A stretch of 57,738 nt of DNA, filler included, from Rhizaria sp. SCN 62-66 (GCA_001724265.1; 2 parts of 2 records of this genome joined end to end with filler, not necessarily neighbours in it); one strand, 5' to 3'; shown: positions 954 through 57,267, counted from the whole stretch's first letter. The notes: generated from the sequence alone by a model not told the origin. Numbers and translations are program-made.

Positions 954-2318
954 TTACATGTTGAGGACGATGCGGCGGGGGTCCTCGACGCACTGCTTGA
1001 TGTGCTTGAGGAACTGCACTGCGGTGGAGCCGTCGAGCAGACGGTGGTCGTAAGTCAGCGCGACGTACATCATGGGGCGCACCTCGACCTTGTCGTCGAC
1101 GGCGATGGGGCGCTTGACGATCGAGTGCATGCCGAGAATGGCAGACTGCGGGGGGTTGATGATCGGCGTGCCGAACAGCGAGCCGTAGACGCCGCCGTTG
1201 GAGATGGTGAACGTGCCGCCGACGAAGTCCTCCATGGCGATGGTGCCGTTGCGGGCGCGGGTCGAGTAGTCGCCGATGGAACGCTCGATGCCCGCGAAGT
1301 CGAGCTCGTCGCAGCCGCGGACGACGGGGACGACGAGGCCCGTGGGGGTGGCGACGGCAACCGAGATGTCGACGTAGTTGCGGTACACGATCTCGTTCGT
1401 CTCGGCGTCGATGTACGCGTTGACGTCGGGGAACGCCTGGAGCGCGGACGCCGAGGCCTTCATGAAGAGGGACATGAAGCCGAGCTTGACGCCGTGCTTC
1501 TTCTCGAACGCGTCCTTGTACTCGTTGCGCAGGCCCTGGGCGGCGGACATGTCGATCTCGTTGAACGTGGTGAGCATGGCCATCGAGTTCTGCGAGTCCT
1601 TCAGGCGCTTGGCGATGGTCTGGCGCATGCGGGTCATCTTGACGCGGCGGTCCTCACGCACCTTGCCAGCGCCGGCCGCGGCGGGGGCGGCGGCGGCAGC
1701 GGCGGGGGCGGCCTTGGGGGCGGCGGCGGCAGGGGCAGCGGCAGCGGCGGGAGCGGCGGCGGCGGCGGGGGCGGCGGCGGCGGCAGCAGGAGCGGCCTTG
1801 GGGGCGGGGGCAGCAGCGCCGCCGGCGGGCTTGGGGGCGTCGCTGTCGATGGAGCAGAGCTTGTCGCCGACCTTGGCGACGTCGCCGGCCTTAAGGGCCT
1901 GCTCGGTGAGGACACCGGAGCACGGGGACGGGATGTCGACGATGACCTTAGCGGTCTCGAGCACGCACAGAGTGTCGTCCTCGTTGACCCACTCGCCGAC
2001 CTGTTTCTTCCACTCGAGGACGTCGCCCTCGAGGACGGAATCGCCGAGGCCGGGGCAGTTCACGGGGGTAGCCGCAAAGGTGCGCGCGGGGACGGCGGCG
2101 AAGGCCGAGGGCGCGGCGACGAGGGGCGCGGAAAGGAAGGCCGAGGACATGGCCAGGGGCTTGGACACAGCGAGGCCGCGGGAAGCGAGCATCGAAGCGG
2201 GAGCCTTGGCGGCGGACGCGGTAGTGGCGAGGGTGCGGGCAAGAGTGGTCGCGGGGCCAGCGACGCGGCTCACAGCACGCGCGGTGCGGGCAACGGTACG
2301 GGTCAGGGACACGGACAT
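954..2318 (-). CDS. DLST: Mitochondrial 2-oxoglutarate dehydrogenase E2 (dihydrolipoamide succinyltransferase), 454 aa, intronless
   Basis: Arg/Ser/Ala-rich presequence; lipoyl domain (LETAKV); Ala/Pro linker; catalytic domain with MTRMRQTIAKRLK, TTFNE, GTPIINPPQSAILGMH, LTYDHRLLDG. Stop TAA. Confidence 0.97.
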   Translation of the reverse strand: MSVSLTRTVARTARAVSRVAGPATTLARTLATTASAAKAPASMLASRGLAVSKPLAMSSAFLSAPLVAAPSAFAAVPARTFAATPVNCPGLGDSVLEGDVLEWKKQVGEWVNEDDTLCVLETAKVIVDIPSPCSGVLTEQALKAGDVAKVGDKLCSIDSDAPKPAGGAAAPAPKAAPAAAAAAPAAAAAPAAAAAPAAAAPKAAPAAAAAAPAAAGAGKVREDRRVKMTRMRQTIAKRLKDSQNSMAMLTTFNEIDMSAAQGLRNEYKDAFEKKHGVKLGFMSLFMKASASALQAFPDVNAYIDAETNEIVYRNYVDISVAVATPTGLVVPVVRGCDELDFAGIERSIGDYSTRARNGTIAMEDFVGGTFTISNGGVYGSLFGTPIINPPQSAILGMHSIVKRPIAVDDKVEVRPMMYVALTYDHRLLDGSTAVQFLKHIKQCVEDPRRIVLNM

Positions 2319-3196
2319 TGGAGTCTGGGTGGGAGCCGGGGGAGCGGGGGTCGACGGGGCGATGTGGAGGGGAGCGAGAAAAGAGTGAGCGGCGATGCAA
2401 TAAGGGCTCGGGTATAATAATTACAAAATTATAAGCGCTGGTGAACAGTATTATTGCAAACCAAACATGGGCGGCAACGCGGGCACGCACAGAAGGCCGA
2501 CCACGAATCTTCAGCACGGAGATGCGGTTGAAGCGTCATCGTCACCACATTTTGGGCACGCCCACGGGCGCCACCCTGCGTCCCAACGACAAAGATGCAA
2601 TTGGAACATAAGCATCGTTGCAAAAAATATCGGGCCACGCTTGCTATCATCAACAACTCGTTGACGCAACGACGCCTTGCCTTGTCGCAAAGCGAAAGTG
2701 GGACGTGGCCAAAACCGAGAGGACTGCTAAAATGATTTAGCTTTTTTGCGAACTCTGCGCTTGTAGCAAAGAACAAGGGCATCGAATCCCCGTGTTTGAT
2801 TTGAAGTTCTGCCACAGTCTTGCTGTCGACTCTTGTGTTCTTCTCGTGCCAGCGCTTTCATTGTGATTTTTATCTGCCACAACTATTACATGTCCTGGTA
2901 TTACGTTCCGGCCCTCATTGAGCAACATTCACTTCGGCCTAGGGGAGAGTGCGATCTCGCTCTCGCTGTGCTGCTGTTATCTTTGGTCAGATCTCCCGCT
3001 GACGCACTACAATGAACAGCTGTCGCGTTAATATGTTAAAGAAATTGTTAATGTCCACCGTGCTCACACACTGACTACCCTTGCATTGACACTTTAGGCT
3101 TTCATCTACTTGCTTTCGTAGGCAGCCTTCGAGGTCCTCACGTGTTAATTCCCGCGCGCTTGCGACACGCCGCACCGCGGTACCCCGAGACGTTTT

Positions 3197-6100: not shown

Positions 6101-9100
6101 AGCAGCAGTAGCGCTCACGACGCCGGCAACGTCAAGGCCGAGCCCGAGTCCGACGCCGCCGCGGCTGCTGCCGCCGCGTCCGCCGCCGTGGCGGCCGCGG
6201 CGGCCCCGCTGCTGTCAGTCGCGATGGGCCTCGCCCCCGTCGCGCCGGGGGTGCCCGCGTCGCTGCTGGCCGACCTCTCCCGCGGCGGCTCCGCCATCGC
6301 GGCCGTCACGGCGGACCCCGACGCCGGCGCCGAGGGCGAGGCCGCCGAGGGCGGCGCGCGGCCGGCGATGCGCAAGCGCAGCGGCCGCCGCAACCGCGTG
6401 CTGCTGCGCTCCTCGAAGGGACGCTTCCGCCGCACTGCGCGCGCGGGCGGCGGCGGCGGCGACGACGACGAGGACGGCGACGAGGATGACGACGACGATG
6501 ACGACGAGGAAGAGGACGACGACTCCGACTACGATGACGACGACGACGACGATGCTGACGACAACGAGCACGCTGACGGCGCCAAGCTTGAGTTTGCTTC
6601 GAAGCGCCCCTGCCGCGCCTCAAGCGCGTCCGAGGCGCAGTCGCAGTCTATCACGCAGCTTCCACAGCCCGGGTCTGCGCGTGCGCTGTCGCTGCCGCAT
6701 TTGGACTTGTCGGCGTCGCCCTACTACGCACTCGTGCACGCCGTCGCTGCCGCAGCCGCGACCGCCGCCGCCGCGGCCGCTGCAGGCGTTTGCGTCGCAG
6801 CCGAGCTCGCGCCCGCGGCCGCGTTCTTGCGCGCGCCGGCCGGCGTCTCGCCAACCTCCGCCGCGGCTGTGAGCAGCGCTTCGTCCAGCGACGCCGCAGC
6901 GGTGCTGCTGCCCGGAGTGCTCGCAGCGCCGCTCGCCGAGCCGCTGGTGGCGCTGCTGACTCTGGGCGTGCGCTTCGACGACGTCCTGCCCTCGGTCTGG
7001 GCCACTGCGCATGGCCGTAACACTCTTGTTCCTGCTACTGCTGCTGTGACGGCCGTCAATTCGCGTAGGAGCTGTGTGCGCGTGCTGCCCGTGCCCCCGT
7101 TGGCCTCGGCTGTGGGCGCCAGCGGCGCGCAGTCCGCGGCCCCCGCTGCGCCCGCGGTCGCCGGCGTGCCCGCATCGGTCAGCCGCGCGCACTTGGACAC
7201 CGACGGCGCGCTGACGCCCGCGGAGGAGCTCGAATGGGACCGCCTCGTCGCGCTGCCCGCGGCCGCGAACCCGGGCGGGTACGTCCTGTGGTCGCCCGTT
7301 GCCGCCGCCGCCGCCGCGGCCACGGGCGCCGCCGCGGGCGCGCAGGTCGAAGCGCTGGCCGAAGTCTCGCGCGCGCTCAAGGTGTTTGCTACCGAGACGC
7401 GTGCGCGCGCGCTGCCCGCGGCGGAGACCAAGGCGCTTGTTGCCGCCGCAACGGAGGAAGCGACGGCCAGCGTGGAGAGCGCGGTCCGTGCTGCCGCTGC
7501 GGGCGCGCTCAGTGGCGTCGGCGCCGGCGTCGGACGCTACCTCTCCACAGTCTCCAAACTCTTCCAGGTATGTTGAATCACATGTATCCCAACAACTCCT
7601 TTGACCTGGTTGATATTTTCACTGATTGACCTTTTTCACATGATATTTTTTTGTTCGCTCATAACCTTCATTAATTGTCTCTTTTCCCACTCATTTAATT
7701 AGGACGCCGAGGCCCGCGCTGCACCTTTGCGCGCGCTGGTGTACCTGCAGAGCATGGCATACAACGGCGACGCGGCGGGCGAGACGCTGCAGCCTTACGT
7801 GCACGTCGACGTCGACGCCGCGGCGGCCTCGCAGGAGTCGGTCGACTCGTTCGCCGGCGACTCGCTGTGTTTCCTGTGTTGCGAGGCCGGGCGCGTGCTC
7901 ATGTGCGAGCACGCGAACTGCTGCAAGGTGTTCCACGCCGAGTGTCTGGGCATGGACAAGTTTCCCGTCGGCACGTGGGAGTGCGCGCAGCACCGCTGCC
8001 ACCAGTGCCGCGCGCCCGCCGGCGACCGCGGCGCGGCGTGCGCCACATGCACCGTCGCCTACTGTCGCTCCCACGTGCCCGCGCGACTGGCCGAGAAGTC
8101 CGTGGCGTACGGCGTCTACGAGTTCCAGTGCTCCAAGTGTATCGACCGCGACGCGGCCAAGCTGCCGGGCAAGGGCCAGGGCGTGGGCCGCACGGCGTTT
8201 CTGCAGCGGCTGCTCGCGCTGCTGCAGCGTGTCGGCGTGCATCTCTCGGCGCCGCCCGTCATCGACGGCAAGATCGAGATGGATCTGTACACGCTCTACA
8301 CTGTTATGATCTCACGCGGCGGGCTTGCCGCAGTCGTGCGCACCAACGACTGGACGGAGGTTTGCGCCGTGCTGGGCATCGCGCAGCCCCCCAGCGCGCC
8401 GCCGACGACCGCCGCCGCCGCCGCCGCCGCCGCGGGGGCCGCACTTGTGCCCGCGTCGCCCGCAGCGCTGGCGACTGCGCTGCCCGCGGCCGCGGCGAGC
8501 GCGTCTCTGGCCGCGCGCGCGCCCGCGCTGCTAGCGTATTACTACTTCTACCTGCTTTACGCCTACGAGCGCAGGCACTTCCGCGGCGCGTTGGCGCTGT
8601 CGCCGCAAGAGAAGCTCTGGATCGACTCCGCAGGCTCGCCGCTCGTGCCCGTGCCGTACGTGGCCGCGCTGGTGCTGCCCAAGGACGACCTGGAGGCGCA
8701 GGCGCAGCAGCAGCAGCAGACGCAGCAACAGCAGCACCAGGCCGCTCAGTCGCAGCAGTCTGCCGCGGCGTCGTCTGCGGCGTCTACGGGCGCCCCGGCG
8801 CAGACCCAGCGTGACCGCGAGCGTGACCGCGAGCGCGAGCGCGAGCGGGAGCGCGAGCGCGAGAAGGAGCGTGAGGCCCAGCTACAGCAACAGCAGCAGG
8901 AGCGCCAGCAGCGCGAGCGTCAGCAACGCGAACGGCAGCAGCGCGAGCGTCAACAGCGTGAGCGCGAGCGCGAGCGCGAACGGCAGCGCCAGGCGCAGGC
9001 CGCCGAAGCCGCTGCCGCCGCCGCTGCGCCCGCTGCTGCTGCCGCTTCCGACGCCGCCGGTGATGCTGATGCTGACAACGGTGCTTCTACTGAGAGCGCC

Positions 9101-9850
9101 ACTATTGCTGCGGCAGCTCCGGGGGCTGTTGGCGCCGGCGCTGCGGCGGACGCGGCGGCCGTGCCGGTCCCTGTGGCGGCGTCTGCTCCGGTGAGTTCTA
9201 GTCGCGCGAGTGCCAGCAGGAGCGGCGCCAGCAAGACAGCCGCGGCCGTCACCAAGGACAAGAGCGCTGACCCAGCTTCTGCGACGGGGGCGGCGACGGC
9301 GACGGCCCCAACCCCAGCAACTGCGGCTGCAGCGGCTGCGACCCCGGCGCCGCGTTCACGCGTGCGGAAGGAGCCCGCCTCCAAGGCGACGCCTGCGTCT
9401 TCGTCTTCGTCGGCGGCGCCTGCCTCCGCTGCGACGGCGGCGGCGGCGGCGGCAGCGGTGGTGTCGCCCGCGGTGAGCCGCCGCGGGCGGCACCGGCGCG
9501 AGGACGCGGAGCTCGAGGCCGCGATCTCAGCCTCACTGGCGCTGGCGGCGCTCGAAGATCGGGAACGCGAGCGTGAGCGGGCGGATCGTGAGCGATCTGA
9601 GCGGGAGAAGGCGCAGAGCGGGCGCGCTGACAGCGAGGCTGCTGCTGAAGCTGCCGCTGAGCCGTCTGCTGGCACCGCCGCGAAGTCGCAATCTTCGAAG
9701 ACCGAGTCCGCGGCAGAGGCGTCTGTTGAGGCTGCGACTGCGTCCGTGACCAGGGCTGAGAAGGAGGTGCAAACTGAGGCGGCAGCTGGTGGCGGTCAAG
9801 CCATGGCTGACGAAGACAAAGCCTCTGAGAACGTGGATAAGAGCATGTAA
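3197..9850 (+). CDS. Large chromatin-associated protein (~2,172 aa): ELM2-like motif, NSD-type PHD/Cys-His zinc fingers, ARID domain, Q/E/R coiled coil, UIM. Exons 3197-7567 and 7703-9850
   Basis: The two track ORFs share a frame and are joined by a 135-nt AT-rich phase-0 intron (GTATGT...TTAG, 7568-7702). Motifs: AKIGPEHQV (ELM2-like); CFLCCEAGRVLMCEHANCCKVFHAECLG...WECAQHRC (PHD); MDLYTLYTVMISRGG...WTEVCAVLG...LLYAYE (ARID); EDAELEAAISASL (UIM). Stop TAA. Confidence 0.85.
8700..8995 (+). repeat. Coding low-complexity repeats: poly-Gln, (RE)n and (RQQRE)n
   Basis: CAG runs, GAGCGC/GAGCGT hexamer arrays and about four imperfect 15-bp units encoding RQQRE are visible in the sequence. Confidence 0.85.
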
Positions 9851-29975: not shown

Positions 29976-30074
29976 CTCGCCAAGCACTGGTCCCGCATGG
30001 AGAAGATCATCGCCAAGAAGGCCGCCGACAAGGCCCTCGCCGACAAGAAGGCTGCCAAGAAGGCCGACGAGTAA
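29976..30074 (+). CDS. 3' end of a probably highly expressed Lys/Ala-rich protein (LAKHWSRMEKIIAKKAADKALADKKAAKKADE*), possibly a ribosomal protein C-terminus such as eL13
   Basis: Strong GCC/AAG/GAC codon bias, TAA stop, AATAAA at 30097-30102, then AT-rich sequence. The identity is a guess from composition only. Confidence 0.55.
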   Translation, partial: LAKHWSRMEKIIAKKAADKALADKKAAKKADE

Positions 30075-41400: not shown

Positions 41401-41531
41401 GTGTTGTGGGGAATGACCGCGTTCTCAACAACACAGAGGTGCGCCGCTTGAAGGACGTACTCAAAGCGTTCGATGTCATGCGCGGGGTGATTATCACTGC
41501 GGTGCCTGATCTGGCAGGATCAGCTGTCTGA
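35445..41531 (+). CDS. Probable single ~2,028-aa organelle-targeted protein with degenerate pentatricopeptide (PPR)-like repeats; one in-frame TAG at 38229-38231
   Basis: Track ORFs 35445-38231 and 38277-41531 share a frame with uninterrupted GC-rich, coding-like sequence across the TAG. PPR-like motifs occur on both sides (PERNVAHWSVMLHSLQRSG; PDAGLFAQLLADAGARGD; TYSALTTALMRNDAPREALRMFWRL). N-terminus MLARRLS resembles a mitochondrial presequence. Final stop TGA. Confidence 0.65.
40170..40244 (+). repeat. 15-bp coding tandem repeat (about 5 imperfect copies) encoding AKPAA/AKPAV
   Basis: GCGAAGCCAGCAG(C/T)G units are directly visible. Confidence 0.85.
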
Positions 41532-41783: not shown

Positions 41784-42728
41784 ATGCAGACACTGATGTC
41801 GAAGAAGAAGCCGGTGACGGTGATGCTTGGTTTTTACGGCGCGCGTCCGCGCTATCTGAATAAGTATGCTGACTTCGTCCGCAAGCTGAAAATCCCTTCC
41901 GCTCCTCGCACTATTGTGCCCACAGAGACGGTTCACTCCGAAGTGGTGACGTACCAGCCGCCGATGGCGAACTTGCTGAGCCGTCGCTGCGCAGACAAAT
42001 CTTCGGCCGAGCTCGCTGACGTCGTCCGCCAAGCCTGGGTCGAGCCCTTTCGCGCCGCGAAGCATGCCGATAAGAGCGCGACCCCCGCGCCGCTCATTTT
42101 CTACCTGCTGAGCAACAACGGTGCGTTCAACTTCGCCAAGTACATGGACACTCTCCGCAAGCAGCATCCCGAAGACTACGAGCTCGTCCAAGAGCACACC
42201 AGTGGCATTGTCTTCGACTCGTGCCCGTCGGATCCCAACCTGCCTCTCATGGTGCGCGGCGTGACCTCCGTCGCCACAGCCAGCGCCTTCAAGAAGCCTG
42301 TCTCGCACCACCCCATGCTGTCGCCTGTCTTCAAAGCCGCGCTGGCCGCCGTGCTGCCGTTCCACGAGCAACACCTCGGCGAAATCACTGACGCGCTTCA
42401 CAACGACCTGCCGCGCCACGCCGCGCTGCTCTACCTCTATTCGCAAGCTGACTCGCTAGTCATGGCCGAGGAGACACGCGCGCATGCCGTTGAGCTCGCC
42501 CCGCGGCAGGGCGCTGCGTACCACGCGCTCTCGCAGAAGTTGAAGCTGCCGTCATTGGTCCTCTCGCCAGAGTCCGCCGCCGCGCTTGGCACGGCTGAGC
42601 GGCTGGGCGAGCGCGTGTTTGCGCACGATTTCGTCGACTCCGCACACGTTGAGCACCTCCGCACGCACACGCCGCGCTACACTGAGCTCGTCCGTGGCTT
42701 CTACGAGTATGCCACGCGCACCAATTAA
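41784..42728 (+). CDS. TMEM53/DUF829-family alpha/beta-hydrolase-fold protein, 314 aa
   Basis: LGFYGARPRYLNKY, YLLSNNG, GIVFDSCP, LYLYSQADSLV and DSAHVEHLRTH match the family motif order. Stop TAA. Confidence 0.85.
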   Translation: MQTLMSKKKPVTVMLGFYGARPRYLNKYADFVRKLKIPSAPRTIVPTETVHSEVVTYQPPMANLLSRRCADKSSAELADVVRQAWVEPFRAAKHADKSATPAPLIFYLLSNNGAFNFAKYMDTLRKQHPEDYELVQEHTSGIVFDSCPSDPNLPLMVRGVTSVATASAFKKPVSHHPMLSPVFKAALAAVLPFHEQHLGEITDALHNDLPRHAALLYLYSQADSLVMAEETRAHAVELAPRQGAAYHALSQKLKLPSLVLSPESAAALGTAERLGERVFAHDFVDSAHVEHLRTHTPRYTELVRGFYEYATRTN

Positions 42729-42975: not shown

Positions 42976-45900
42976 TTAAAGCAGCATACGTGAAAAATCA
43001 TTCATATATGCCGCCACCACGGTATCGATCGCCTCAACAGCAGCCGCAGCAGCAGCGTCCACAGTCAGCGTCGGGCGCCACGGTAGCGCCACTCGATCAG
43101 CACTATCTACCCTCGCATTTGCACCGGAGAAGCTCGCGCTCGCGCTCGTTGTGACGACCGTGGCGGCGGCACCGCAGCCCTGCTGCTGCGTGACCCAAGC
43201 CAGCAGCAGCGCAGCAGCCTCCCAGCGCGCGTGCGGGCGCAGCGCAGCGTACGCCCGCGCCAGCGTCGCGCCGTCAACGGCCGAGCCCAGAGCCTGCTGC
43301 AGCGCAACGGGCACGGCCCCCGCGGTCGCGATCAGCAGCTCACGCGCGTACGGCGTGGCGACCCCCGCCGCAGCTGACGCCGCCGCCGCGCGCGCGGGCG
43401 CTCCGGCCGAGCCCCGCAGCGCGCCGGCCAGTTTGGTCACGACGGCGGGCGGACGGCCCACCGGCAGCGGCGCAGCGGCCACCACGCCGGAGCCCGCGGC
43501 GGCGTCCGCGGCGGCGGATGCGGCGGCCGCGGAGCCCGCCAGCGGAGCCTGCGCGGCGTCGAGGCAGTACAGTCCACCGGTCGACGCCGCGTGGGTGGCG
43601 AGTGCAGCGACACGTGCCCAGTCGACCGCAGCGCCCGCACAGCCAGATAAAGCGCGGGAAACGCAGGGCGCCAGCGCGGCGTCGCCGCCGTACAGCCACG
43701 GCCACGCGCCGTCGGCGTTCTCAGCACTGTCTGCAGCTGCGGCGTCAAGGTCGACGTCGTCCGCAGCCGCCGAGGCAGACGCAGACGCTGACGCAAAGGA
43801 AGATGACGAAGAGTTGGCGTTGCGGGCGCGTTTAGCAGCCTGCGTTGCAGGGTCACCACGGCGAGTTGCGCGGCGGTTCTTATCACGCGCGCGCGCTTCT
43901 TTCGCGTTCACGTCAGCAAGCGCCGTCGCGTTGGCCTGGCGCCAGCCGTCGACCGCAGTCGCAGCGAGCACGGCCACGGTCAACATGCGCAGGAAGAGAA
44001 ACTGCGGCAGCGTCAGCGGCGCAAGCGGGCCCACCGCGCCTGCAACCGAAGCCCACACGTGCGACGGCGCGGGGGTGGTTAACAGCGCAGTAACATCGGC
44101 CTCGTTCAGGAACGTGCCTTCTAGTGGCGTCTCGGTGCTACTGCTGCTCCGCGCGGCCGCGAGCGAGAGCGCGACAAACGGGTGTGTCGCGGCGGCCGCA
44201 GCGACTGCGGACGCTGTAGCGTTCGGGCCTAGCAGCGCCGCGGCCGCTGCGGTGCCCAAGCGCGCGTGCAGGGCGCTGGCGGGCGCTTGGCCCAGCGGCA
44301 CAAGGGGGGCCAGAACGTTTATGAGCGCTGCTGGGTGCACCGCGCCAGTAAGGCGCAGACGCTGCGGCAGCGCGGCGTTTGCGGGCGGTGCGGCGCGGCG
44401 CAGCAGATGCTGCAGCGGGGACGTTGCGTCAGGTGACATGAACAGCAGTGAGCCCGCGTCGTCGCTCAGTGCGAGCGCGCGCGAGCCCGGTAGGGGCGCG
44501 GCGTCAATGCACCAGCGCTGCGCAAAGTCACGTGCAGCGGGCAGGAGCGCGTCAGCAGCGGCGTCGTAGCGCAGCACCGCCACGGACGCGTTGAGTGTGC
44601 CCATCACAAGCACTTCCTCGCCTTCGCCCTCGCCTTGGCCCTGGCTCTCAGCATCCGCACTGGCGTCGAAGGGTGACGAACGGCCCGCGCGCAGTGAGAG
44701 TACGAAGATCTCTCCCGTGTACGCGGCCAGCGGCAGCAGCCGGAACGGATATCCGGTCTCCGCGGCGGCCGGCAGCGCGGCGCGGTGCCAGCCGTAGATG
44801 TGCACCGCGCCGTTGACCGCAGCGGCGAGACAACCGCGGAATACCGCAAGCGCGCTCACTGCGCCGGCGACCGTGCGCCGCGCCGCCACGCTTACAGCCA
44901 CGCCTCCCGCGCGCACGCCGCCGGGGCCGGCGTCGGCGGCGGTGGGCGCGACAGTAAGCACGAGAATGCGGCCCAGCGCGGGCTCAGCCTCGCCGGGGCG
45001 CGAGAAGCCTGTGCCGACAGCGAATGCCGCGACGCCGAGCCCGGCCGCGGCCGGGGCGGCGCGGCGCAACGAGGCCGTAGCGCCGGGCGCGAGCCGCGGA
45101 AGCGCGACGGGCACCACGCACAGCGGCTCCTCACCGGGCAGCAGGCGCAGCGCGGCGAGGTAAGACATGCCCAGCACAGAAAAGAACCGCACAAAGCCTT
45201 CTGCAGCGGGCTCATTCGCGGGGGGCGCGGCGCCAGTCACGCGCGCGAGAGCGGACGCGGGCGACGGCGCGGTGTCGGCGGCGGCCGCGACTGCTGCGGC
45301 TGCGGCGGCGGGTTCATGGGCGACGGAGAACACGGGGGCGTCGCGCGGGGCCGGCGCGGCGGCGGCGGCGAGCGCACCGACGGGGAGTGGTGCGGCCAGC
45401 GCGGCGGCGGACAGCGCAACAGCGGGGCGAGCAGTGTCCGCCGTGAACGGCAGCAGCGCGTCGGCGCGTGGCTTCACAGTTGCCACGGCAACGACTCCGA
45501 GCCGCGGGCAGAGTGCAGCGCGGCGCGGCTGCTCATCAAGCGCATACGCGCGCTCAAGAGGCGCTGTTGAGGACTGCAACGCGTGCAGGCGCGGGGCCAT
45601 GCGCGGCTGCGAGCGGCGGGCCAGCGGGGCAGCAGGCACAGTGAGCAGAGCGTCACTGGTGCAAGCCGTAGTTTCCACTCCAATCGTGATGGCAGCTGCG
45701 CAGACAAGCGGGCCACTTGCCAGCGCCAGCGGAATCAGCGGAGCGCGTTGCGCAGCTTCCTCGGCGTCGTCCGCGGCTTCCTCGTCCGTGCGCAACGTTT
45801 GCGGGACGGGGTCATCGCGCGATTCGATCTCGATATCGCTGTCGTCACCGCTGTTCGTAGTCGCCTTCTTGACAGCCACGGGAGCTGACAGCTCCACACC

Positions 45901-48900
45901 GGGTGTCGCAGACGAGAGCTCCAGTGCAAGAGGCTTGTCACACGCGGCAACTTGCCTCGGCTGCAGCACCGTAGCGCGTCCACGCGAGTCCCGCGTTGCG
46001 GTCACAACCACATTTAACGCAGGCGCGCCGCTTGCGGTGGCCGTTAGCATGTGGGGCGCGCCCACGGCGAGCGCCCAGCCTGCCGCGCCAACGGCGGCGC
46101 CGACGGGGACAGACAGCAGCGCACCGGACGCGAGCGCAGCGACAAGCGTAAGCGTGCGCGGCGGCGTCCGACCAGCAAGTACTGGTGCAAACGCAGCATC
46201 GGAGTCAGAGTCGGGCACCGTTAGCGGCCGTAGGTCAGCCAGTGCAAGCGAGGCTGCGTGCGACGCGCCAGGCAGCGGCACTGTCGCAAGGTGAGACAGC
46301 GCAGTTGAGCCCGCGCGCCATGCGAGCAGCTGTAAAGCCGGAGGTGCAGCCGCGGCAGCACAAGTCGCCACGGCCAACACGGATACCGAGTCTAACGCGG
46401 TCGAAGCGGGTGACTCGAGAGCGCATAGTTCGCCGTCAAGCAATACATGTGTGACGGGAGCGGAGGCGTTTGCGCCTGCGGTGGCCGCTGCAGCAGCGCG
46501 TGTGGCGGGCAGCGCAGACGCAGCGGCTGCAAGCCCTGCCCAGGGCAACTGCGGCGCTGCGAGAAGGTACGCTGCGACAGCACTGCCCTCGGCAGCCAGA
46601 GGCATCGCGGTGACGACGTCAAGCGTCCAAGTGGGGAGCGAGTCTCCAGTTGCAAGGCGAATCTGCATCATAGCTAACGCGTGCGTGGGCTCGGTGCCAT
46701 CCTCAACTGCAGCCATGAGCGCAAGAGAGACTATGCCGCTCTGCAAGGACGCCGCCGAGGTCGCATAGACGGCAGTCGCTGACGCGGCTACACCGAGCGC
46801 GGATGCTATAGCCGGCCACACGTCAGACACGGCAACCCTCAGCGCCGTGGCACCGCTGCCCCACACAAGCACAGCGTCAGGCGTCACTTGAACCAGCGCG
46901 CTCACTGCTGCAGCAGCAGCAGTGCACTCGGGACCGAGCGGTGCAGTCAGCACCGAGCCTAGGTACAGCGTTGCCTCCGCGCTCGCGTCGCGACTGACCT
47001 CCGCCGCTGCAGGAACAAACTCCGTGCTCTCGGCTGCACACAGCGCCGCAAGAGGTCGCTCTAGCAGACGTGCATCAAGCCTGGGCTCAGCGATCCCCGC
47101 GAGAACGCACAGCGCGCCGGGCGCCCACTGTAGCGGCGCGTACGCAGTGAGAAACGCCCCGCAGGCACAGTTGCTTTCGGCCGCACCGCCGCGACGGGGC
47201 GCGCCGCACGCGCAGTTCGGCGCCATCAGCGCGGGCAGTGCGCGAGCGGGCGCGCGCAGTGTGATGCCGCGGCGCAGCAGCGTGAGCGCACCGCCGGCCG
47301 CCGCGCCGCCGCAGAGAAGAACGCCACCGCCGAGGTGCGCAGGTAGAGCGAGAGCGTCCACCGCTGGTGCCGCGCTTGGGTACGTTGCCTCCACACGCAA
47401 CAGCTGCTGTGGGATGGCTGCACTTGCTGCGTTCTGCTGGTGATGTTGCTGTGAGGTCAGTGCGGTGAGTGCAATGCGGAGCAGTTGTGAGGGCGCAACC
47501 GCGGATGCGAGGAAAAGATATCCGCTGTCGAGATAGGCCAGTGCGGCCGCGGGTGATGCAGAGCCAAGTGCACGGTAGCGCAGCCGCACGCGCGGCGCTG
47601 ATGTGTCAAACCCAGCGAACGTGTCGTCCGGCACTGTCGTCGAGAACGTCAGCGCCGCCTCAGTCGCTGTACCTGGCTCAGCCTTGACCTCGCCGCGCTT
47701 GTGGCCGCTAGTATGGGTGTGCGCAGGGAAAAACGTTTCGATCTCAAGTAAACCCAGTTGTCCGGTCGAGTCGCTGACGAGCACGCGCGACACACTGCCA
47801 ACAACGCCCGCCGCGCGCAGCGGCGCGGCCCCAAGCACCGCCAGCGCCGACAACCCGGCGGCGGCCGACACAGGCCGAGTGGCAGACACGACCGTGAGCG
47901 CGCCCGCCGGCAGCACACGGCCCGCAAGAGCGTTGGCGGTATCAGTCAGCGCAGCACCCGCGCCCAGCGTCGTGGCTACCGCTGGCGGCGGCGTCGGAAC
48001 GGGGGCGCCAGCGAGGACGGCGCGCACGGCGGCCAGCGCGGCGGGGTAGATCGCAGTCGCGTGCGCGCGCGCGTCGGACAAAACGCGCGCAAACACTGCG
48101 GGGGGCAGCGGGGAGGGCGCGTCCTCACCCGCCGCAGCCGCACCCGCCGAAAGCGCCGCCGCCGCTGCTGATGCTGCTGCATTAGAGCTTGAGCTAGCGG
48201 ACGAAGCAGTAGCGAGACGACTGGCGGCGCGAGGGGGCGGGAGCGCCACGCCCGCGCGCGCGCCGCCGTCCTTGCCGTTCGCGTGCAAACACGCATGTAC
48301 GCCGGGGCCCAGCACGAGCAGTCCGCCGGCCGGCAGCGCGGCGAGCGTGGTCGCAGCGGGCGCGACCTCAGTCACGGGCCAAGGACCGGGCACGAGCGCG
48401 AGCGCTGCCGTGGGCCGCTGCACGCGCGCGGAACCGGTGCCGGCGCCGGTCGCAACGGCGGCTGCGGCGGCCTCTGCGGCGGCGGCGGCCAGACGCGGCG
48501 GCAGCGAGGATGTGAGGTGCTCGATGACAGCGTCAGCCGCGTTCACCACAACACGGGTGTCGGCGCCGGTCACGAGGTAGGTCCGCACGAAGCGGCGCGC
48601 AAGCTCGTCCTGGAACAGCACGGCGAGCAGCGGCAGCAGCCCCGCCGGCCGCGCGACGAACGCGAGAGACAGAATCTGCAGCTCTTCGATGCGCACGTCC
48701 ACGCCCCGCACGCGCCCAACAGCACTCGCACCCAGGCCTGCACTGGCGCTCGCACTGACGCTAGCGCTGGAGCTAGAGAGAGCGTTGGAGTGGGCGCTAG
48801 AGCTGTGGTGAGAGACGGAGCGCGCCGCCGTGCCGTCTGGCGCGAGCGGAACAAGGTGGATCAGACCTGCGTGCGCGTGCACTGCGAGAACGCCAGCGGC

Positions 48901-49593
48901 TGGGTCAACCGCGCACAGAGGGCCGGACTGCGCGCGCGGGGGCGCGGCGTCGCCCGCAAAGCCGGAGGTGCCGGCGCCGGCGCAGCTGCCGGAGAGCCGC
49001 GTGCGCAACGAAGGCGGCGCTGCGCCATTGGCACTGGCACTGACACTGGAGTCGACACTGGCACTACTGGCACTGGCGCTGATGCGATTATGAGGAGAGC
49101 TGGAACTGGCACCGGGGGGCTAGCACGTAACAGAAAAGAAGCGCATCTCCTGCGTGCACACAAAGAGATAGTCCGTCATGCGTGGCTGAGGCAACGGCGG
49201 AAGAGTGGTCTCCGTCTCAGCGGCAGCGGCGGCTGAGGCACTACGGCGGGCTGAGGGTGGCGGCGGCAGGGACGCGATGAGGTGTTGCCGCGCGAGACGA
49301 GCGAGAAGCTCGCGCGGCTTGTAGAGAAACATTCCCGCAACGGCGCCGTGCAGCGGGACGCGGAATGAGTCTAAACCACGAGGGGTGACAAGTCCGACCT
49401 CAAGCGCGGAGCCCTTGGCCACCACGACGTTCAAGTCGGTCTCGCCCGTGAAGCTGCCCGAGCACGCGTGAGTGGCGGCGGTCGCCTCTTGGGCCACGCC
49501 AAAGTACTGGTAAGGCGTCGGCTGTGCGGGAGGATCACCGAAGTGCAGGGGCGCGACCGGTGTGGGAGGCGCGTCGGTCATCAACTGACTCAT
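42976..49593 (-). CDS. DDB1: DNA damage-binding protein 1 (CUL4 adaptor)-like, expanded to ~2,205 aa by Ala-rich insertions; one in-frame TAG at 49120-49122
   Basis: N-terminus YFGVAQEATAATHACSGSFTGETDLNVVVAKGSALEV...TDYLFVCT matches the DDB1 start. Same frame after the TAG: SGPLCAVDP...GLIHLVPL, DVRIEELQILSLAF, LAYLDSGYLFLAS..PSQL, AVGTG..PGEAEP.LGRILV, GAV..L..FRG.L.AAVN, AARDF...W. Final stop TAA. Confidence 0.85.
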
Positions 49594-49882: not shown

Positions 49883-50574
49883 ATGGTACGTCTAATTAAT
49901 TGTCTTCGCTAAATTACATATTTTAGATATACCATCCAGCCGCACGTGTATTCGTTTTGAGATCTCACATGCCCTCCTACGTCGTCGGTGCCTGTTAGGA
50001 GCTTGACCGTCGCATTCTGGACTCGCTGTCGCTGGGCAACAGCGAGGGCGTTTTTGACGACAAGCAGTTTGCGAAGCTTGCCGACGCGGTTGCGCGCGTG
50101 GCGTCGAACGAGGTGGACGCCGAGACGATGGAGAAGGTCCTCGCGTCGATGAAGACTGACGCCCTCAAGACGAAGCAGCTGTACACTGCGCTGCTCAACC
50201 TGGCCTATGAGGCCGCTCGCCACGACGCGAAGCTCCCCGAGATCACATCATTTGTCGACGACCGGCTGTCGAGCGACCGCCTGGAGGCTTTCTACTCCAT
50301 CTTCGACGCCAGCAAGGCCAAGATCCGCTCTCAGCTCGCTCGCAACTCGATTTCCTTCCCCGACGTTGTCGACATCGCGTGGCGCCTCGACTATTACGTG
50401 CAAAACAATCAGCTCGAGCACATCCGCACGCCCGTGTTTTTCGTCACGCTTACGACGCAGGCCGCGGACGGTTCGCTGGGCACGGTCGAGTTCACTGCGT
50501 CTGTGCAGGAGCTCCAGGACCTCCTTGCGCGCGTCAAGGAGGCCTGTAACGCCGCCAAGCTCGTCACTATCTAA
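49883..50574 (+). CDS. COMMD3: COMM domain-containing protein 3, 192 aa (exon 1 is the ATG only, 49883-49885; intron 49886-49998; exon 2 49999-50574)
   Basis: ATG|GTACGT...TTAG|GAG gives M-E-L-D..., like the MEL start of COMMD3. COMM domain: PDVVDIAWRLDYYVQNNQLE...P.FFVTL...FTASVQELQDLLARVKEA. Stop TAA. Confidence 0.88.
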
Positions 50575-51065
50575 GCCCTACGTCACGCAACTGCGCTACT
50601 CTACCCCACGGCACACATCCGACGGCATTGCGCTGTGTCTGACGATCGGCGCGCGACTTGCGATCGCTGTGACGCGCACTTCAGCTGTCATAAGTGTGCT
50701 GCACGACAGGCTGGTCACATCTTTCTCGTGGGCGATAGGCCAAGCAGGCCATTTATCGTGTGTAATCACTGTCCAACGCTGTGGAAATCTACCCGCAACG
50801 TGCTACAAAGCAATATCTGTTATTTTTTCTCTTGCTATCGTCTCTTTATCATCATGCGTCGCAGTTAACGTATTTCAGTGCCAACTGAGGAAGTAAAAAG
50901 TGTTCGAAGTGAGTTGTTTAGAATATTTGTTTAGATTTATTTTTTCACATATACAAAATAATACACCTATTTTTCATTCATCACATCTATCTACCAGTTA
51001 TTTTCCTTTACCGACACAAATCGCTATGATTGTCAATTGCGACTTGCGCACTATTCGGCACTTCC

Positions 51066-52793
51066 TTAGAGTTTGCCGGCCTCGATGCGCGCGAGCTGTG
51101 CGACAACGAGCGCAGTCTCCCCGTCGACCATCTTGCGCGCGAGCCGCGTGAAGGCCGTATCCGGCACCGCCTCGCCCTCGGGCCCCGCCTCCGCGGCGGC
51201 GGCAGCAGCTTTGCTGGCATCATCCCCGTCGCCATCATCTTCAACGATCTCGAGTTGCGCGCCCTCACGCCGCTCCGCGCTCTTCTGCGCGGCCTTGGCC
51301 ACGGCGCGCGCCGCCTCGGCCGCGGCCGCCGGGTGCGCGGCCTCAACGTTGGCCTTGAGGGCTGACATCACGCGCACGCGCCAGTCGTCAGGGCAGTCGT
51401 CTGCGAAGAGCCAGTGCTTGGTGCGCTGCAGGATCTCAAGCATCTCGGCGCCGTCCATGCCAGGCTTGCTGGGGTCCACCCCGGCCTCCTTAAACGCCTT
51501 GGTAAGCCCCAGCAGCGCTGCCGAGACTTCCTCGCGCGTCATGCATTGCACGGCGAGCACGCGCCACACGTCGCGCCACTGGTCCAGCGGCGCGAACGGC
51601 GGGGGCACCGCCCCGGCCGCGGCGCCAGTCGCCGTCCTGATCGGGACGGCGAACTCGGCGTGGGTCAGCCCCAGGCGCGCGGAGACCATGGCCTTGATCT
51701 TGAACAGCGGGTCGCCGACAGCGAGCGAGAAGCGGGCCAACAACCTGTCTCCCGGAAGCGCCGGGACGACGAAGCCCTGGTAGGCAAAGAGCAAAGAGTT
51801 CGGCCGGCCGCCGTAGTCGATGTAGATCTGCCCGCCATTGGCCACAGCAGCGTGCAGGAACGACTCCGAGCTCTGCGTCGGCCAGTCAAACGCCGACTTA
51901 AGTGCGCCGCCGAACGGAGCGTGGTTGAGCGAATCGAAGCCCGGGATGAGAGCGATGGTGGTCACTGGGCGGCCGCCGGGACGAAAAGACGACGCGAGGA
52001 TCTTGTTCTGGCGCGCCATGAGCGTAGCGACGGCCCAGCGGAACTCGCGAAATGTGAACTCGGGGAGCTTCACCCCCTGGCGCGCGCGGGCCGCGGCGAT
52101 CTGGTCCACGGCGTCGACGTACTGACGCACGTGCGTCGTCACCATGAGCAGCGCGGCGGCGTAGGTCGCCGAGCCCTTGAGCGCGCGTAGCTCTGCGGGC
52201 GACGCGTGCAGCGGCGTGGTGTACGCAGCGGGGAGAATCGCCAAGTACGGCGCCCAGAAGGAGCTGGCGCCCGCGAGACGTTCAAAGAGGAGGTGGAGTG
52301 CGGTGGCGAGAGAGTGCGACCGCTGCAGACGCTCGTCGCGCTCGATGACGACGCGCAGGGGCGACTCGAGCGCAGTCTCAAAAGTCAACATCGCCTTGCG
52401 TGGGATGCGCATGAAGAGCTCGTCGGCTTCCAGGTCACGCGCGGCGACGACGCCGGAGCCCTCGGGGACGGCGGAGGAGAAAACGAACGAATCGTCGAGC
52501 CCGCTGTCGGGGGCGACGCGCTTGAGCCACTGCGCAAACGTCACGTAAAGTGTCTCGAGCTCGTCCGCGGAGACCTCGACGTCCATAAATGAGGGCGCGG
52601 AAGGGTTCTTCTGGGCCTCGATGAGCGTCTGCAGCAGAGGCCAGAGCTGGGCGTAGTACACCTCAAGCTCGGCCACTGACGCGGGGCGCTGCTGCTCCAT
52701 CTGCTTCTGCGTGTACGCCTCCGTCGCGCTGCGCAGGGCCGCAAGGGCCTTTTCAGTCCGGTCCAGCCGGGTCTGCGCGTACAGGTTTGACAT
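51066..52793 (-). CDS. SETD3: SETD3-like SET-domain (protein-histidine/lysine) methyltransferase with Rubisco-LSMT-type substrate domain; possible extra 5' exon 53060-53004 via intron 53003-52806
   Basis: EGSGVVAARDL, IPRKAML, HLLFER...SFWAPYLAILP..YTTPL, FRWAVATLMARQN, ALIPGFDSLNH, QIYIDYG.RPNS.LF..QGFV, DPLF..K. The upstream GTGAGT...ACTAAT...CAG intron is phase 0 and in frame, so the start is uncertain. Stop TAA. Confidence 0.82.
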   Translation of the reverse strand: MSNLYAQTRLDRTEKALAALRSATEAYTQKQMEQQRPASVAELEVYYAQLWPLLQTLIEAQKNPSAPSFMDVEVSADELETLYVTFAQWLKRVAPDSGLDDSFVFSSAVPEGSGVVAARDLEADELFMRIPRKAMLTFETALESPLRVVIERDERLQRSHSLATALHLLFERLAGASSFWAPYLAILPAAYTTPLHASPAELRALKGSATYAAALLMVTTHVRQYVDAVDQIAAARARQGVKLPEFTFREFRWAVATLMARQNKILASSFRPGGRPVTTIALIPGFDSLNHAPFGGALKSAFDWPTQSSESFLHAAVANGGQIYIDYGGRPNSLLFAYQGFVVPALPGDRLLARFSLAVGDPLFKIKAMVSARLGLTHAEFAVPIRTATGAAAGAVPPPFAPLDQWRDVWRVLAVQCMTREEVSAALLGLTKAFKEAGVDPSKPGMDGAEMLEILQRTKHWLFADDCPDDWRVRVMSALKANVEAAHPAAAAEAARAVAKAAQKSAERREGAQLEIVEDDGDGDDASKAAAAAAEAGPEGEAVPDTAFTRLARKMVDGETALVVAQLARIEAGKL

Positions 52794-53239
52794 GTCGGCT
52801 CCGGGCTGCGAATGCGGCAGTCGCAGTGGGGGAGCGAGTGGAGAGGGATAGGAGAAGTGCGAAATGATGCGGATTAGTCGGTTATTTGTGGACATGTGCA
52901 TTGTAATTTAGTGATCATGTACACTATCGCTGCTTCAATTCTGTTCTATTAGTGAAATGCTATATGACGGAAGACTGACCGAGAACATGATGTTGAAACT
53001 CACTAAACGGGACGCGTGCTGTGAGCCCGGCGCTCGCCACGATAGGCTCCGTGCGACCATAGAACAACGTATAGACGGTTTATGATGTCCAACATTTGTC
53101 TAGATCCTGACACATCTGGAATATATTGAGCGGTGAAGCCTGTTGTACATAATAGGTGAAATTTGTGTATATAACGTAGTCCCATATCTTCCTAGCCCCC
53201 TTCCTCTGATTCTGTTGTTTTGCCTTCGCTCATGTCGTC

Positions 53240-54206
53240 TTAATCAACCATGAGCTTCTTGGCGCGGAAATACCGCTTAAGGTACCAGATCTGCAGGAGG
53301 CCCGTGCCGACCAGAATGATGATCGCCACGACGTTAAACCACAGAACCTGCGACGCCGTGTTGGCGTTGAGCTCGCGCATCTCCTCCTGGCGGCGACTCA
53401 ACCACGTCTCATCGCGGCGGATGCCGGAGACGATCTGCTCCAAGTGCGAGACCTGCACCTCAAGAGGGCGCAGGTTCTTCTTCGTGGCCACGTTCTTCGG
53501 TTTGGCCTCGGCGCCGGTCAGCAGGCGGAACTTGATCGTCTTAGGACCCTCTGTAAAGATAAAAAGAACAAAGAATCCAGGTAGACAGAGTGAGTGTGTG
53601 TTGGATAAAGGGAATACATCAAATGAAAGCAGCAACTCCTTAGGACAGAATAGATGGCTATCCAACATAGCAGTATCTGCGTCCGCTATGCACATAAATG
53701 CACAGAGTCAGCTATCTTGTGAACATGTGCAACTACCGGCGAGGTTGCGGCACGGTCACAAACGTACCATGATCAACGGTATTAGAAAAGCACGCCTTAT
53801 ACTCTCCGTTATCCGCGGCGGTGTATGCAAAGTTGCCCTCGAAGGCGTGGGGCTTGTGGAAAGCGACGGCGCCAAGGGGGTCGCGCACGTTGACAGCGAC
53901 GACACGGCCCTCGGGCTCGACCCAGAACTCGCCAGAGACGTACTCGCCGCGGATCACGTCTTGGCTGTAGGCGCAGAACGCAAAAGAAAGCACAAAAAGC
54001 ACGTGGAGGTGAGATTGAGGCATGCATAATCTGCAAGAGAAAGAACATTCATGAGAGAGAAACAACCCGAGAGAGAGGGAGTTGTGGGTGGGGACGAACC
54101 TGATGCAAGTCTCCTCGCCGACGCGGAGCGTGAAGCCGAGGGCGCTGACACCGCCAAGGGTCGCAATAAACGCGACCGCGGCAGCACACAGCGCGAGCAA
54201 ACACAT
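53240..54206 (-). CDS. p24/emp24/gp25L GOLD-domain cargo receptor (TMED10/p24-delta-like), ~204 aa; exons 54206-54100, 53964-53768, 53550-53240
   Basis: Spliced: signal peptide, ETCISQDV...GNFAYTA...GEYKACFSN, coiled coil REEMRELN-like segment, TM helix, tail QIWYLKRYFRAKKL. Introns GTTCGT..CAG (135 nt) and GTACGT..CAG (217 nt) keep the frame. Start uncertain. Stop TAA. Confidence 0.9.
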
Positions 54207-54936
54207 GAGGTCTAAGCATGGGGGGCAAGCAATGGGGGCAGAAGGAAGATGGGTTGTTGGGTTAGTTTGACTCAGCAAACGCGCGCTAAAATCACGCCAC
54301 GAGCACAGCGTAAACAGAAGCCGAAGAAATGAAGGAAAGATATAGTATTCAATGATGTCGGAAACCTAGAGTACACGCAGTTGCATAACGCCATTATGGA
54401 CAGATGTAGCACATATCGCTGTTGATTTTGGCCGATTTAGCTGACGCTTCGTCAAGAGCTGCGACCGTGGCCGACCGTGGTCGCCGTGTAACAACCAACC
54501 GAGATATCTCCCGAGCTATTGTGCGCTGTATAACTATCGTCTGGCTTCGGAGGTTACTGTTTACAGCGTCATCATGCACATCTGAAACATATTTCTTTAT
54601 TATCCCCCACCATTTGCTGAGTCTATCTCGCTCTAGTCTTGTCGAGATACGCTGCCGCGCAGGCGAGACAACCGCTCCAAATACTCTTGCTTTCGTCGCC
54701 CTAAAGCCACAAACCATCATTTATAGTTGTAACCGCGGGATTTTAGAGTGTACCCACGCTATTCCGATATGTAGTGCCGTGTGATTTGTCTTAGATGGTC
54801 TTACTTGTGCGTCTGATTCGAAGTTACGCTCGCAAGTCGCCTTCGCCAAGTCCTATCCCCACCCTCGAACGATATCATTTGCCTCACGTTCCGCCTCTTG
54901 TTCACTGTTTCTCGCCTTGTTTCCGCAGACGGCGCA

Positions 54937-57267
54937 ATGTCGTTTTTCAAAAACTTGTGGTTTGGCAAGCCGCAACCTGACGCTACTCTTCAGGAGTATG
55001 TCAAGGGTACGTTACTCCTCTTCTGACACGCACGCACGCGCTTCCAACCCACCAACATCTTACGAGCTCCAGTCAGCCATATTGCGACTTTTTACCCGAA
55101 TGCGAACGTTCCTTCGACGTGTATTTTTATCTTATGCGAATATGTCTTATCCCTTTCCCTTTGCACTCATCTTTCGCTTCTGTACCCCTCGCCCGCCCAC
55201 GCACACAACGCCGTTTTTTAAAACTTCACGCCACTTGCGATGTCGCACACACGCACAATAGAGATCGACGCGCTGACTGACGTAATGCAGGACATGCGCA
55301 CCAAGTTCTCCGCCTACTGCAACGCCGTTGTCCACATCGGCACCACCGGTCTCGAGCTCGCCGACGGTGTCCACAAGTTCAACCAGAAGCACCGCCCCGG
55401 CCACCTCCCGTCGCTCTCGTTCGCACAGGTCCAGTACGCGTTCCGCGAGCAGCTGCGCCTTAAGTGGGCGCGCCAGTTTAAGGAAGAGGCGATTTACATG
55501 TTCGAGCACTGGTACAAGCAGTCCGAGGCGCAGAAGAACACCATCGCTAACTTCGAGATCGCCCGCCAGCACTGCCACCACCTCAAGGCGCAGCTTCTTG
55601 AGCTGCTCGACCAGCGCGCCAAGCTCGTGGAGAAAAACAAGCCCGTCCCGCCGACGCTGACAAAAGAGTCTGCGGACGCCGACCAGCAGTTCCGCAAGTA
55701 CTCTACCGCTCTCGACTCGATGCGCGCCGCTATCGTGAGCAACCAGCAGCGGCTCACGGGCCCCCAGGGCCAGTTCGTGTACTTCGACAAGGCCTTCGCG
55801 ACGCTGCTTGAGATGCAGGTTTCGCTCGAGCGCGAGATGCGCCGCGTCGTCGACGCCTACGAGCCGCTCATTGCCGCCGCGCGCCAGGAGCTGGGCGCTC
55901 CGAACAGCGGCCTCAGCGACAGAGCCGCCGCCGTTGGCGACGCACAGTTGCGCGAAGACGAGATGGCGATGACGGGCTTCGAGCGCCAGCTTAAGGAGAT
56001 GGCCGAGTTCGTCGTCCAGACCCACCTTGAGCAGGACGACGGCGGCGGCGCGGCGGCGTCCCCGCTCAAGCGCAACCTCGAGGTCGACGCGCTGCTGCAA
56101 CAGTTTGTGGCCTCCGCGCCCCCCACACCACAGGCCAGCGGCGACGGCGCCGGCGCGGGCTCCGGCCGTGTCGGCGGGCTGCGGCTGTCCCTGGGCGCCA
56201 CGGGGTCTTCCGCGGCCGGCTCCGGCGGCGCGGGCTCGGGCGACTTGCTCTCCGCGCCGTCCCCGCGCTTGCTCGCGTCGGCGCGCAAGAAGAAGCGGCT
56301 GTCGTGGGGCGTTAACGCCGGCGTGTCCACCGTCGACAGCCCGGTGCACGGCGCGACCCCGCTTAAGGGTTCGCTCGCCGAGCAGGCTATCGCCGAGGAG
56401 CCGGAGGACGGCGACAACGCGTCCGTCTCCTCCACTTCCGCCGCGGCCGCAGCCTCTGAGGGTCCGGCGCTGACTGGCGACGCTGCGACGCGCGCGCTCG
56501 CCCGCCGCTCTCTCGGTGCGCAATACGGCATTACAGACTCGCTGATGGAGACGGACATCGACGCGTATCTCGAGGGCCAGTTCGACGACGCTGCGGACGA
56601 GGACGACGAGCTTCACCTCCGTGCCGCCGCCGCCTCCGCCTCTGGCTCCGACCACGCGGTCACGGACGACAGTGCTGTGCATAGCGGCCTGCTCGCGCTG
56701 CCTTCCGCGCCGTCCACCGCGGCCTCCGCTCTCAGCACGCCGCTGGAGCCCGCCGAGCCTCCCGCCGTGATGCTGGCCAAGACGGCTGCCTGGCGCGACG
56801 CCGCCGACTCCGTATCCATGGCCGCCGGCGCCATCTCAGCCGCGGGCGACGGCCACACCGGTCTGCCCAGCGATGGCGCGGTTGACTGGCCCGCTGACCT
56901 CATCGTGCGCGACTTCGAGCTCCAGTCGTGGGAGTCCCGCGCGGGTCGTCGCAAGCCGCTGCGCGAGCTCCTCGCCACGCTTCAGCTCGCGCTGTGGCCC
57001 GGCGTGTCGTGGAAGGTCGTCACCATCGCCTCCATGGCGGGCTGGGCAGGCGTCGCGGCAGTGTTTAACCGCGCGTGGGCCGCCGTCGCGCCGGTGGCTG
57101 AGGCCGCGCGGAAGGAGCTCGGCGCCGCCGCGGCCGGGTCGCCCGCCACTGCGCTCGCCGCGCTCGGCGATAGCGCTGTCGGCGTCAAGTACATGACGGC
57201 GCTGCGGGTTGCGTCGGCGCTCGCGATCGCCATGGATGTCGAGGTGCGCACTGCCGGCGAGCTCTAA
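54937..57267 (+). CDS. ~691-aa protein: N-terminal BAR-like helical region, disordered middle, C-terminal auxilin-type J-like domain lacking HPD (exons 54937-55006 and 55262-57267)
   Basis: Exon 1 MSFFKNLWFGKPQPDATLQEYVK joins in frame through a GTACGT...TAG intron (55007-55261). The C-terminus W...RKPLRELLATLQLALWPGVSWKVV...VFNRAWAAVAP resembles the auxilin/GAK/Swa2 NIRALLSTL..VLW....W......YRRA.L.VHPDK region. The BAR call is inferred from helical pattern only. Stop TAA. Confidence 0.7.

Follow-up and report, generated by a model that had tools for sequence, protein, structure and literature searches.

A stretch of 57,738 nucleotides assigned to Rhizaria sp. SCN 62-66 (GCA_001724265.1), referred to here as the window, raises the question of whether the eukaryote that it represents translates the codon UAG into an amino acid and keeps UAA and UGA as stops. 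The question arises from two TAG triplets, here called TAG1 and TAG2, that lie in frame inside two long genes of the window, and from the gene ends of the same window, none of which uses TAG. The observation itself is confirmed, and the reading of UAG as a sense codon in this organism is plausible but unproven; the published accounts cited in the final paragraphs describe codes of this kind in other lineages. The window has a GC content of about 63%, it is eukaryotic and gene-dense, and its introns are few, short and AT-rich. Positions 29876-29975, which the first-pass annotation of this DNA had taken for a gap, are occupied by an artificial linker with stops in six frames (N44-TTAATTAATTAA-N44), and two contigs therefore make up the window, contig 1 at positions 1-29875 and contig 2 at positions 29976-57738; TAG1 and TAG2 are both carried by contig 2.

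The genes of the window were modelled as 15 open reading frame (ORF) segments that add up to 15,345 codons. These codons include only two internal stops, both TAG and both followed by C, as the first-pass annotation had reported, and no internal TAA or TGA. TAG1 (38229..38231, plus strand, gcc TAG ctc) is located in a GC-rich, alanine-rich coding sequence of about 2,028 codons (35445..41531, plus strand) that ends in TGA (41529-41531, next base a purine). TAG2 (49120..49122, minus strand, tgc TAG ccc) interrupts a DDB1 homologue within its first beta-propeller; this coding sequence of 2,205 codons (42976..49593, minus strand) ends in TAA (42976-42978, next base a purine). Both sites share the context C-TAG-C, and the sequence continues as TAG CTC CTG in the first case and as TAG CCC CCC in the second. 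Downstream of TAG1 and TAG2 there are 1,099 and 2,047 stop-free codons, respectively, so any inactivation of these genes would be very recent in both.

TAG1 is flanked by ORFs of 949 and 1099 amino acids that share a single frame. In this window a GC content below 0.5 marks every intron and every intergenic spacer, and the GC content at third codon positions (GC3) of the coding regions ranges from 0.73 to 0.91. The surroundings of TAG1 have a GC content of 0.75-0.8 and show no low-GC spacer, while GC3 in the frame of the gene amounts to 0.87 over the 30 codons that precede the triplet and to 0.87-0.90 over the 60 that follow it. The possibility that TAG1 is the end of a separate first gene is therefore unlikely, given that the spacer is missing, the coding periodicity is continuous and GC3 is maintained on both sides.

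Both triplets recur in public assemblies. TAG2 is the exact end of a predicted protein of 153 amino acids (P0002, 100% identical), which was found on three contigs from Logan and the European Nucleotide Archive (ENA) that may not be independent; P0152 (2,010 amino acids), also on three contigs from Logan and ENA, corresponds to the ORF downstream of TAG2. For TAG1, the ORF that lies upstream is on record in two versions, P0274 and P0275, which both stop precisely at the triplet and were found on three contigs each that again may not be independent. No read-through variant of either site was present in these 90% protein clusters. We conclude that TAG1 and TAG2 are genuine DNA and not assembly slips, and, as judged from the sequence, that both are internal to coding sequence and outside introns; we regard both conclusions as confirmed. 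Contigs of a polyA-RNA run (X5) also match the two genes: one contig covers positions 39468-39893 of the TAG1 gene with no differing letters, and five contig pieces fall within the DDB1-like coding sequence. Such contigs, identical in sequence to the window, occur in both genes on the downstream side of the TAG.

The gene that carries TAG2 provides the only site that can be aligned with homologues. It contains both the first beta-propeller and the C-terminal CPSF_A region of the DDB1/CPSF160/SF3B3 (RSE1) proteins, and thus belongs with this group. Positions 3-77 of PF10433 match upstream of TAG2 (E 4.4e-05) and positions 102-201 downstream of it (E 1.2e-09), and a PF03178 match is also present in this coding sequence (E 2.1e-14). 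Likewise, residues 3-70 of human DDB1 align upstream of TAG2 (E ~1e-07), and the downstream side aligns colinearly with residues 118-155 and 156-199. For an alignment using MAFFT, the N-termini were taken from all 40 matches of at least 900 amino acids among the 150 matches listed; a strand conserved in these 40 homologues aligns up to the residue that precedes TAG2, and in the column of TAG2 itself there are 25 aspartates, 8 asparagines, 2 arginines, and one each of lysine, cysteine, histidine, glutamine and glutamate. An exhaustive search of 1.84 billion representatives retrieved the fragments of this same protein and homologues with only 31-38% identity as best non-self matches, whereas a homologous-protein search with the DDB1-like N-terminus returned nothing, its candidate lists being probably swamped by low-complexity words. 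Large inserts rich in alanine and serine also bring the DDB1 homologue to 2,205 amino acids, double the common length of about 1,140, and no coding sequence of the window has a GC3 below its 0.73. For the protein that carries TAG1, no homologues were detected in Pfam with either half; the label "PPR-like" that had been given to it is not borne out, and the protein corresponds to no known family.

The introns of the window follow a common pattern (GTAYGT...TTAG, AT-rich) and account for the other breaks in its ORFs. The modelled intron of the ARID gene (7568..7702, plus strand) is AT-rich, has 135 nt and reads GTATGT...TTAG; that of the COMMD gene (49886..49998, plus strand) has 113 nt, reads GTACGT...TTAG and is placed directly after the ATG; and the p24 intron starts at position 53767 on the minus strand, with exons in different frames. 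Two further TAG triplets were discarded as codons by these models: the in-frame TAG that precedes the COMMD ORF, which would have been a third case, is the acceptor of the intron that follows the ATG, and the TAG that closes the ORF of p24 exon 1 is intronic, given that the reading frame changes there. When the coding strand around TAG1 and TAG2 was compared with these three real introns, neither a GTAYGT signal nor an AT-rich body was found. Segments bounded by GT and AG that preserve the frame do occur, with 42 nt ending at TAG2 and 18 nt ending at TAG1; as mini-introns they were rejected, since they lack both GTAYGT and AT-richness and the real introns have 113-135 nt, and since removal of the 42-nt segment would delete the strand that is conserved in the 40 homologues.

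The ends of 14 genes could be defined in the window, of which 11 use TAA, 3 use TGA and none uses TAG; on contig 2 alone there are 10 ends, 7 TAA and 3 TGA. The 13 ends listed by the first-pass annotation are all as it described them (10 TAA and 3 TGA), and the fourteenth is a TAA newly recognized at positions 191-193. UAG is thus never found as a true terminator, although a sample of 0 in 14 has low power. Besides TAG1, TAG2 and the antisense shadows of known genes, no coding-like ORF of the window ends in TAG. The base that follows the true stops is a purine in all 14 cases, nine times G and five times A. Despite a GC3 of 0.73-0.91, TAA is the stop of 11 of these 14 genes, and the termination context looks unusually strict.

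From these results we tentatively favour the interpretation that UAG is decoded as sense, either fully or by efficient suppression, to which we would give a little less than an even chance. Ribosomes would pass TAG1 and TAG2 and produce the full-length proteins. This could come about in two ways: UAG may have been reassigned and serve as a sense codon of very rare use, or a suppressor tRNA may outcompete eRF1 at it, at least where termination is weak, that is, with C after the codon. In the version with a suppressor, selection would bar UAG from the gene ends and tolerate it where termination is weakest, a proposal that matches the C-TAG-C contexts of both sites. Termination would be left to UAA and, in fewer genes, to UGA, in both cases with a purine as the next base, and a polar residue would suit the alignable site at TAG2. 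A narrower form of this proposal, which we consider unlikely, is that the organism represents an early-stage ambiguous intermediate, a GC-rich non-ciliate eukaryote in which UAG has been purged from gene ends, is decoded by a suppressor and is tolerated rarely in C-UAG-C contexts. The claim of the first-pass annotation that UAG is reassigned or read through therefore holds in part: the internal TAGs are real and none of the 14 ends is TAG, but the pattern is near what chance would give and TAG is very rare.

Several points weigh against a sense UAG, and the differences in UAG frequency from known lineages that are given below belong with them. There are two sites only. Single-base nonsense changes in these genes would yield TAG in 59-63% of the cases, and in 68% if only GC->AT transitions are considered, because codons ending in G dominate (CAG 379, GAG 453, AAG 261, TCG 395); under plain mutation, two TAGs out of two have p ~0.35-0.47, so that finding TAG at both stops shifts the odds by a likelihood ratio of only some 2-3. 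The absence of TAG from 14 ends is a weak test, with p 0.23, 0.10 and 0.044 if TAG had a share of 10, 15 and 20% of the ends, respectively. TAG appears in frame twice in 15,345 codons, less often than the rarest sense codons (AGA 5, ATA 12); GC3 pressure should favour TAG if it were an established sense codon, and codons ending in G are indeed preferred (CAG 379 against CAA 92), but TAG is nonetheless rare. From TAG, a single mutational step leads neither to aspartate nor to asparagine, the residues that dominate the TAG2 column, and this column does not allow an amino acid to be assigned. Scans of the window gave no tRNA genes and no Rfam matches. The contig mapping, RNA run included, listed no differing letter at either TAG, with the cover of the exact bases not established. 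Finally, a frame change near 27.78-27.80 kb, which does not involve a stop codon, indicates that the window includes broken or mis-modelled genes.

The alternative that survives best is that the code is standard and that the two TAGs are recent premature stops, fixed or in the majority in the sludge population and located in dispensable, duplicated or decaying genes; we find this explanation rather doubtful, but it is a real contender. It would attribute the absence of TAG from the 14 ends to a strong preference for TAA and small numbers, which is unremarkable if TAG ends no more than 10% of the genes (p at least 0.23), and nonsense substitutions are expected to give TAG in 59-68% of the cases. 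The two TAGs also sit in two of the four longest genes, which are the largest mutational targets, and the DDB1-like gene, with its 31-38% identity, doubled length and lowest GC3, may be a relaxed paralogue. The TAG2 column, which fits no single amino acid, and the unexplained frame change at 27.78-27.80 kb in another gene agree with this explanation as well. Against it, nonsense changes represent only 2.6% of substitutions, yet the two genes remain open for 1,099 and 2,047 codons beyond the TAGs, and two null alleles among about 14 genes far exceed the usual loss-of-function loads. Moreover, the TAGs recur on several contigs, the stretch is present in runs from 2015-2017 and in a separate study from 2025, and no intact allele was seen in the same 90% protein clusters. 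The C after both TAGs also has to be explained; from the frequency of C at codon position 1 (0.241), two such cases would occur by chance with p ~0.058. If the TAGs were plain nonsense alleles the case would be ordinary, and would serve as a caution that premature stops in GC3-rich genomes are mostly TAG by mutational arithmetic.

We consider it quite improbable that a standard code is combined with recoding at these sites, either by programmed or leaky readthrough of UAG-C or by mRNA editing of UAG to UGG or CAG; other genes might then still end in TAG. Stops followed by C are the leakiest in eukaryotes, and the contrast between C-TAG-C at both sites and a purine after all 14 real stops agrees with this explanation; in addition, editing of premature UAG to UGG occurs in filamentous ascomycetes. 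Nevertheless, no stimulatory downstream motif or structure was found, and the C after the stop is the only feature that fits a leaky context. The TAG contexts differ from the CARYYA-type readthrough motif, and no exceptional RNA structure adjoins either site: the folds were no stabler than those of shuffled sequences (z 0.59, -0.35, 1.02 and 0.42, the first two for the 122 nt from each TAG onward). To our knowledge, programmed readthrough gives C-terminal extensions and does not bridge the middle of a propeller. With regard to editing, the RNA run was among those that listed no differing letter at either TAG, with the limit on the cover of the exact bases stated above.

Last, it is very improbable that the TAGs are artefacts, whether errors of sequencing or consensus or unconventional introns of very short length, for even though the k-mer depth is low (~5-7), the window is a stitched pseudo-molecule and the 42-nt and 18-nt GT..AG segments keep the frame, ORFs that end at the same TAGs recur on three contigs each in Logan and ENA, the unbroken 14.7-kb ORF of a giant receptor on contig 1 indicates a low rate of substitution errors, and the candidate mini-introns lack GTAYGT and AT-richness, the longer one deleting a conserved strand.

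The remaining genes of contig 1 include a probable 3' fragment of a gene (ORF 2-193, plus strand, GC3 0.81, no Pfam match), whose TAA at 191..193 is followed by G, and DLST (954-2320, minus strand; PF00198, E 3e-85), with its TAA at 954..956 followed by G. The best named match of DLST is from the amoebozoan Vermistella antarctica (70%), and other named matches come from several supergroups (64-68%). Two environmental relatives, P0156 and P0157, have 86-89% identity and are found on 3.5-kb contigs, from which, judging by sequence similarity, a related organism is present in public data; a search with P0156 (89% identical) in genome contigs returned bacterial loci only. The ARID/PHD protein, recognized by Pfam, is encoded on the plus strand, contains the 135-nt intron and ends in TAA (9848..9850, next base G). 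It is followed by the giant receptor (10742-25456, plus strand), a protein of 4,904 amino acids with 25 Ephrin_rec_like and 16 TIG stretches; it ends in TAA (25454..25456, next base G), is encoded by a single exon of 4,904 codons and has NCD3G-like repeats besides. Contig 1 closes with a partial TIG/Somatomedin-B gene identified by Pfam (ORF 27488-29923, plus strand); the TAA that closes this ORF is not biological, since it is provided by the artificial linker. Between 27600 and 27900 on the plus strand, this gene shows a signal-peptide-like ORF in one frame and a Cys-rich domain in another, the switch being located at ~27780-27800, and there is a TACTAAC box near 27872. An assembly error had been proposed at 27788; the change of frame near 27.78-27.80 kb does exist, and it may correspond either to a 1-nt indel or to an unusual intron.

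Contig 2 opens with a gene fragment that ends in TAA (30072..30074, plus strand, next base A). It is followed by an MFS transporter, identified by Pfam, and by an aldo/keto reductase, identified by a domain search, both on the minus strand and both ending in TGA (30679..30681, next base G, and 33773..33775, next base A, respectively). Between the TAG1 gene and the DDB1-like gene there is a DUF829/TMEM53-like gene recognized by Pfam (plus strand, TAA at 42726..42728, next base A). The COMM-domain gene starts at 49883 on the plus strand with a first exon that consists of a bare ATG, and ends in TAA (50572..50574, next base G). A SETD3-like methyltransferase (minus strand, TAA at 51066..51068, next base G) and the two-exon p24/EMP24 gene (minus strand, TAA at 53240..53242, next base G) come next. 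The last gene encodes a protein of 675 amino acids (plus strand, TAA at 57265..57267, next base G) that had been called "auxilin-like"; the Pfam search gave no domain, the J domain included, and we do not retain this name.

In public data, a probe from the window was partly present in 10 of the 11 runs listed, which belong to 6 studies, and at least half of the sampled words were found in 4 of them. The runs are labelled as bioreactor, wastewater and activated-sludge metagenomes, and those that contain this stretch do so at a k-mer depth of ~5-7. Mapping onto positions 35300-55299 (runs X2-X5) used contigs only and gave many GC-rich cross-matches; GC-rich repeats of alanine codons (e.g. ~40300-40520 and ~48150-48490) draw hundreds of cross-matching contigs from other organisms, hence depth figures over the genes of this region are unusable. 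Searches of metagenome and genome contigs returned no loci related to the DUF829 protein and no match to the exact DNA pattern around TAG2.

Reassignment of UAG alone with UAA kept as a stop is known in few nuclear lineages, namely a sainouroid rhizarian, Iotanema and some phyllopharyngean ciliates, and UAG is common in all of them as far as the cited accounts describe. The first two had been named by the first-pass annotation and stand as it gave them, whereas the phyllopharyngeans had been omitted (PMC11687900). A search of the literature gave no account of UAG having changed its meaning in a eukaryote from sludge with a GC-rich genome, which is no proof of absence. The rhizarian exLh (Sainouroidea) is reported to read nuclear UAG as leucine and to use UAA and UGA as stops; 71 genes contained 384 UAGs in frame, most of them at positions where leucine is conserved, and the ends were 56 UAA and 15 UGA (PMC5304391). 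The organism studied here resembles exLh in that its in-frame stops are UAG only and in that its ends are dominated by UAA, with some UGA and no UAG (11 TAA and 3 TGA); in both cases, moreover, a protist that is no ciliate, or here not evidently one, came to light unplanned among mixed sequence data. In contrast to exLh, only 2 in-frame TAGs are found here in about 14 genes, and the alignable one falls in a column of aspartate and asparagine. In Iotanema spirale (Fornicata), nuclear UAG is described as glutamine and UAA and UGA as the stops; there were 204 UAGs across 126 genes, and the ends comprise 104 UAA and 15 UGA (PMC5304391). The likeness in this case includes the "occasional" in-frame UAG, the lack of UAG ends and UAA as main stop, and a polar residue such as glutamine would suit the turn position of TAG2; the density of UAG is, however, far lower here, 2 in 15,345 codons.

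In phyllopharyngean ciliates UAG is reported to have become leucine and glutamine independently, with UAA as the preferred stop and with suppressor tRNAs in 2 of the 3 genomes in which UAG is leucine (PMC11687900). As in these ciliates, in the present case UAG alone would have changed, UAA is a fixed stop and the discovery derives from a metagenome; in contrast, sense UAG is widespread there, as described, and is accompanied by tRNA genes, whereas this genome is GC-rich, not evidently of a ciliate, and has very rare UAG. Codes in which the same codon is stop or sense have been described for Condylostoma, Parduczia and Blastocrithidia (PMC4967479, PMC12153298). A codon whose stop or sense meaning is set by its context would agree with the contrast between C next to the internal TAGs and a purine next to the stops; nonetheless, the ambiguous codons of those organisms are common in coding sequences, and here TAG is never seen terminating a gene. 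In those ambiguous codes the context that decides is the position near the 3' end of the mRNA. If UAG is sense in this organism, gene callers that apply the standard code split such proteins at the TAG, as seen for P0002, P0152, P0274 and P0275. Compared with the lineages in which sense UAG is already common, a genome with UAG removed from its terminators and yet almost unused, and restricted to contexts of weak termination, would represent an early step of codon capture, a stage that so far has only been inferred by theory.

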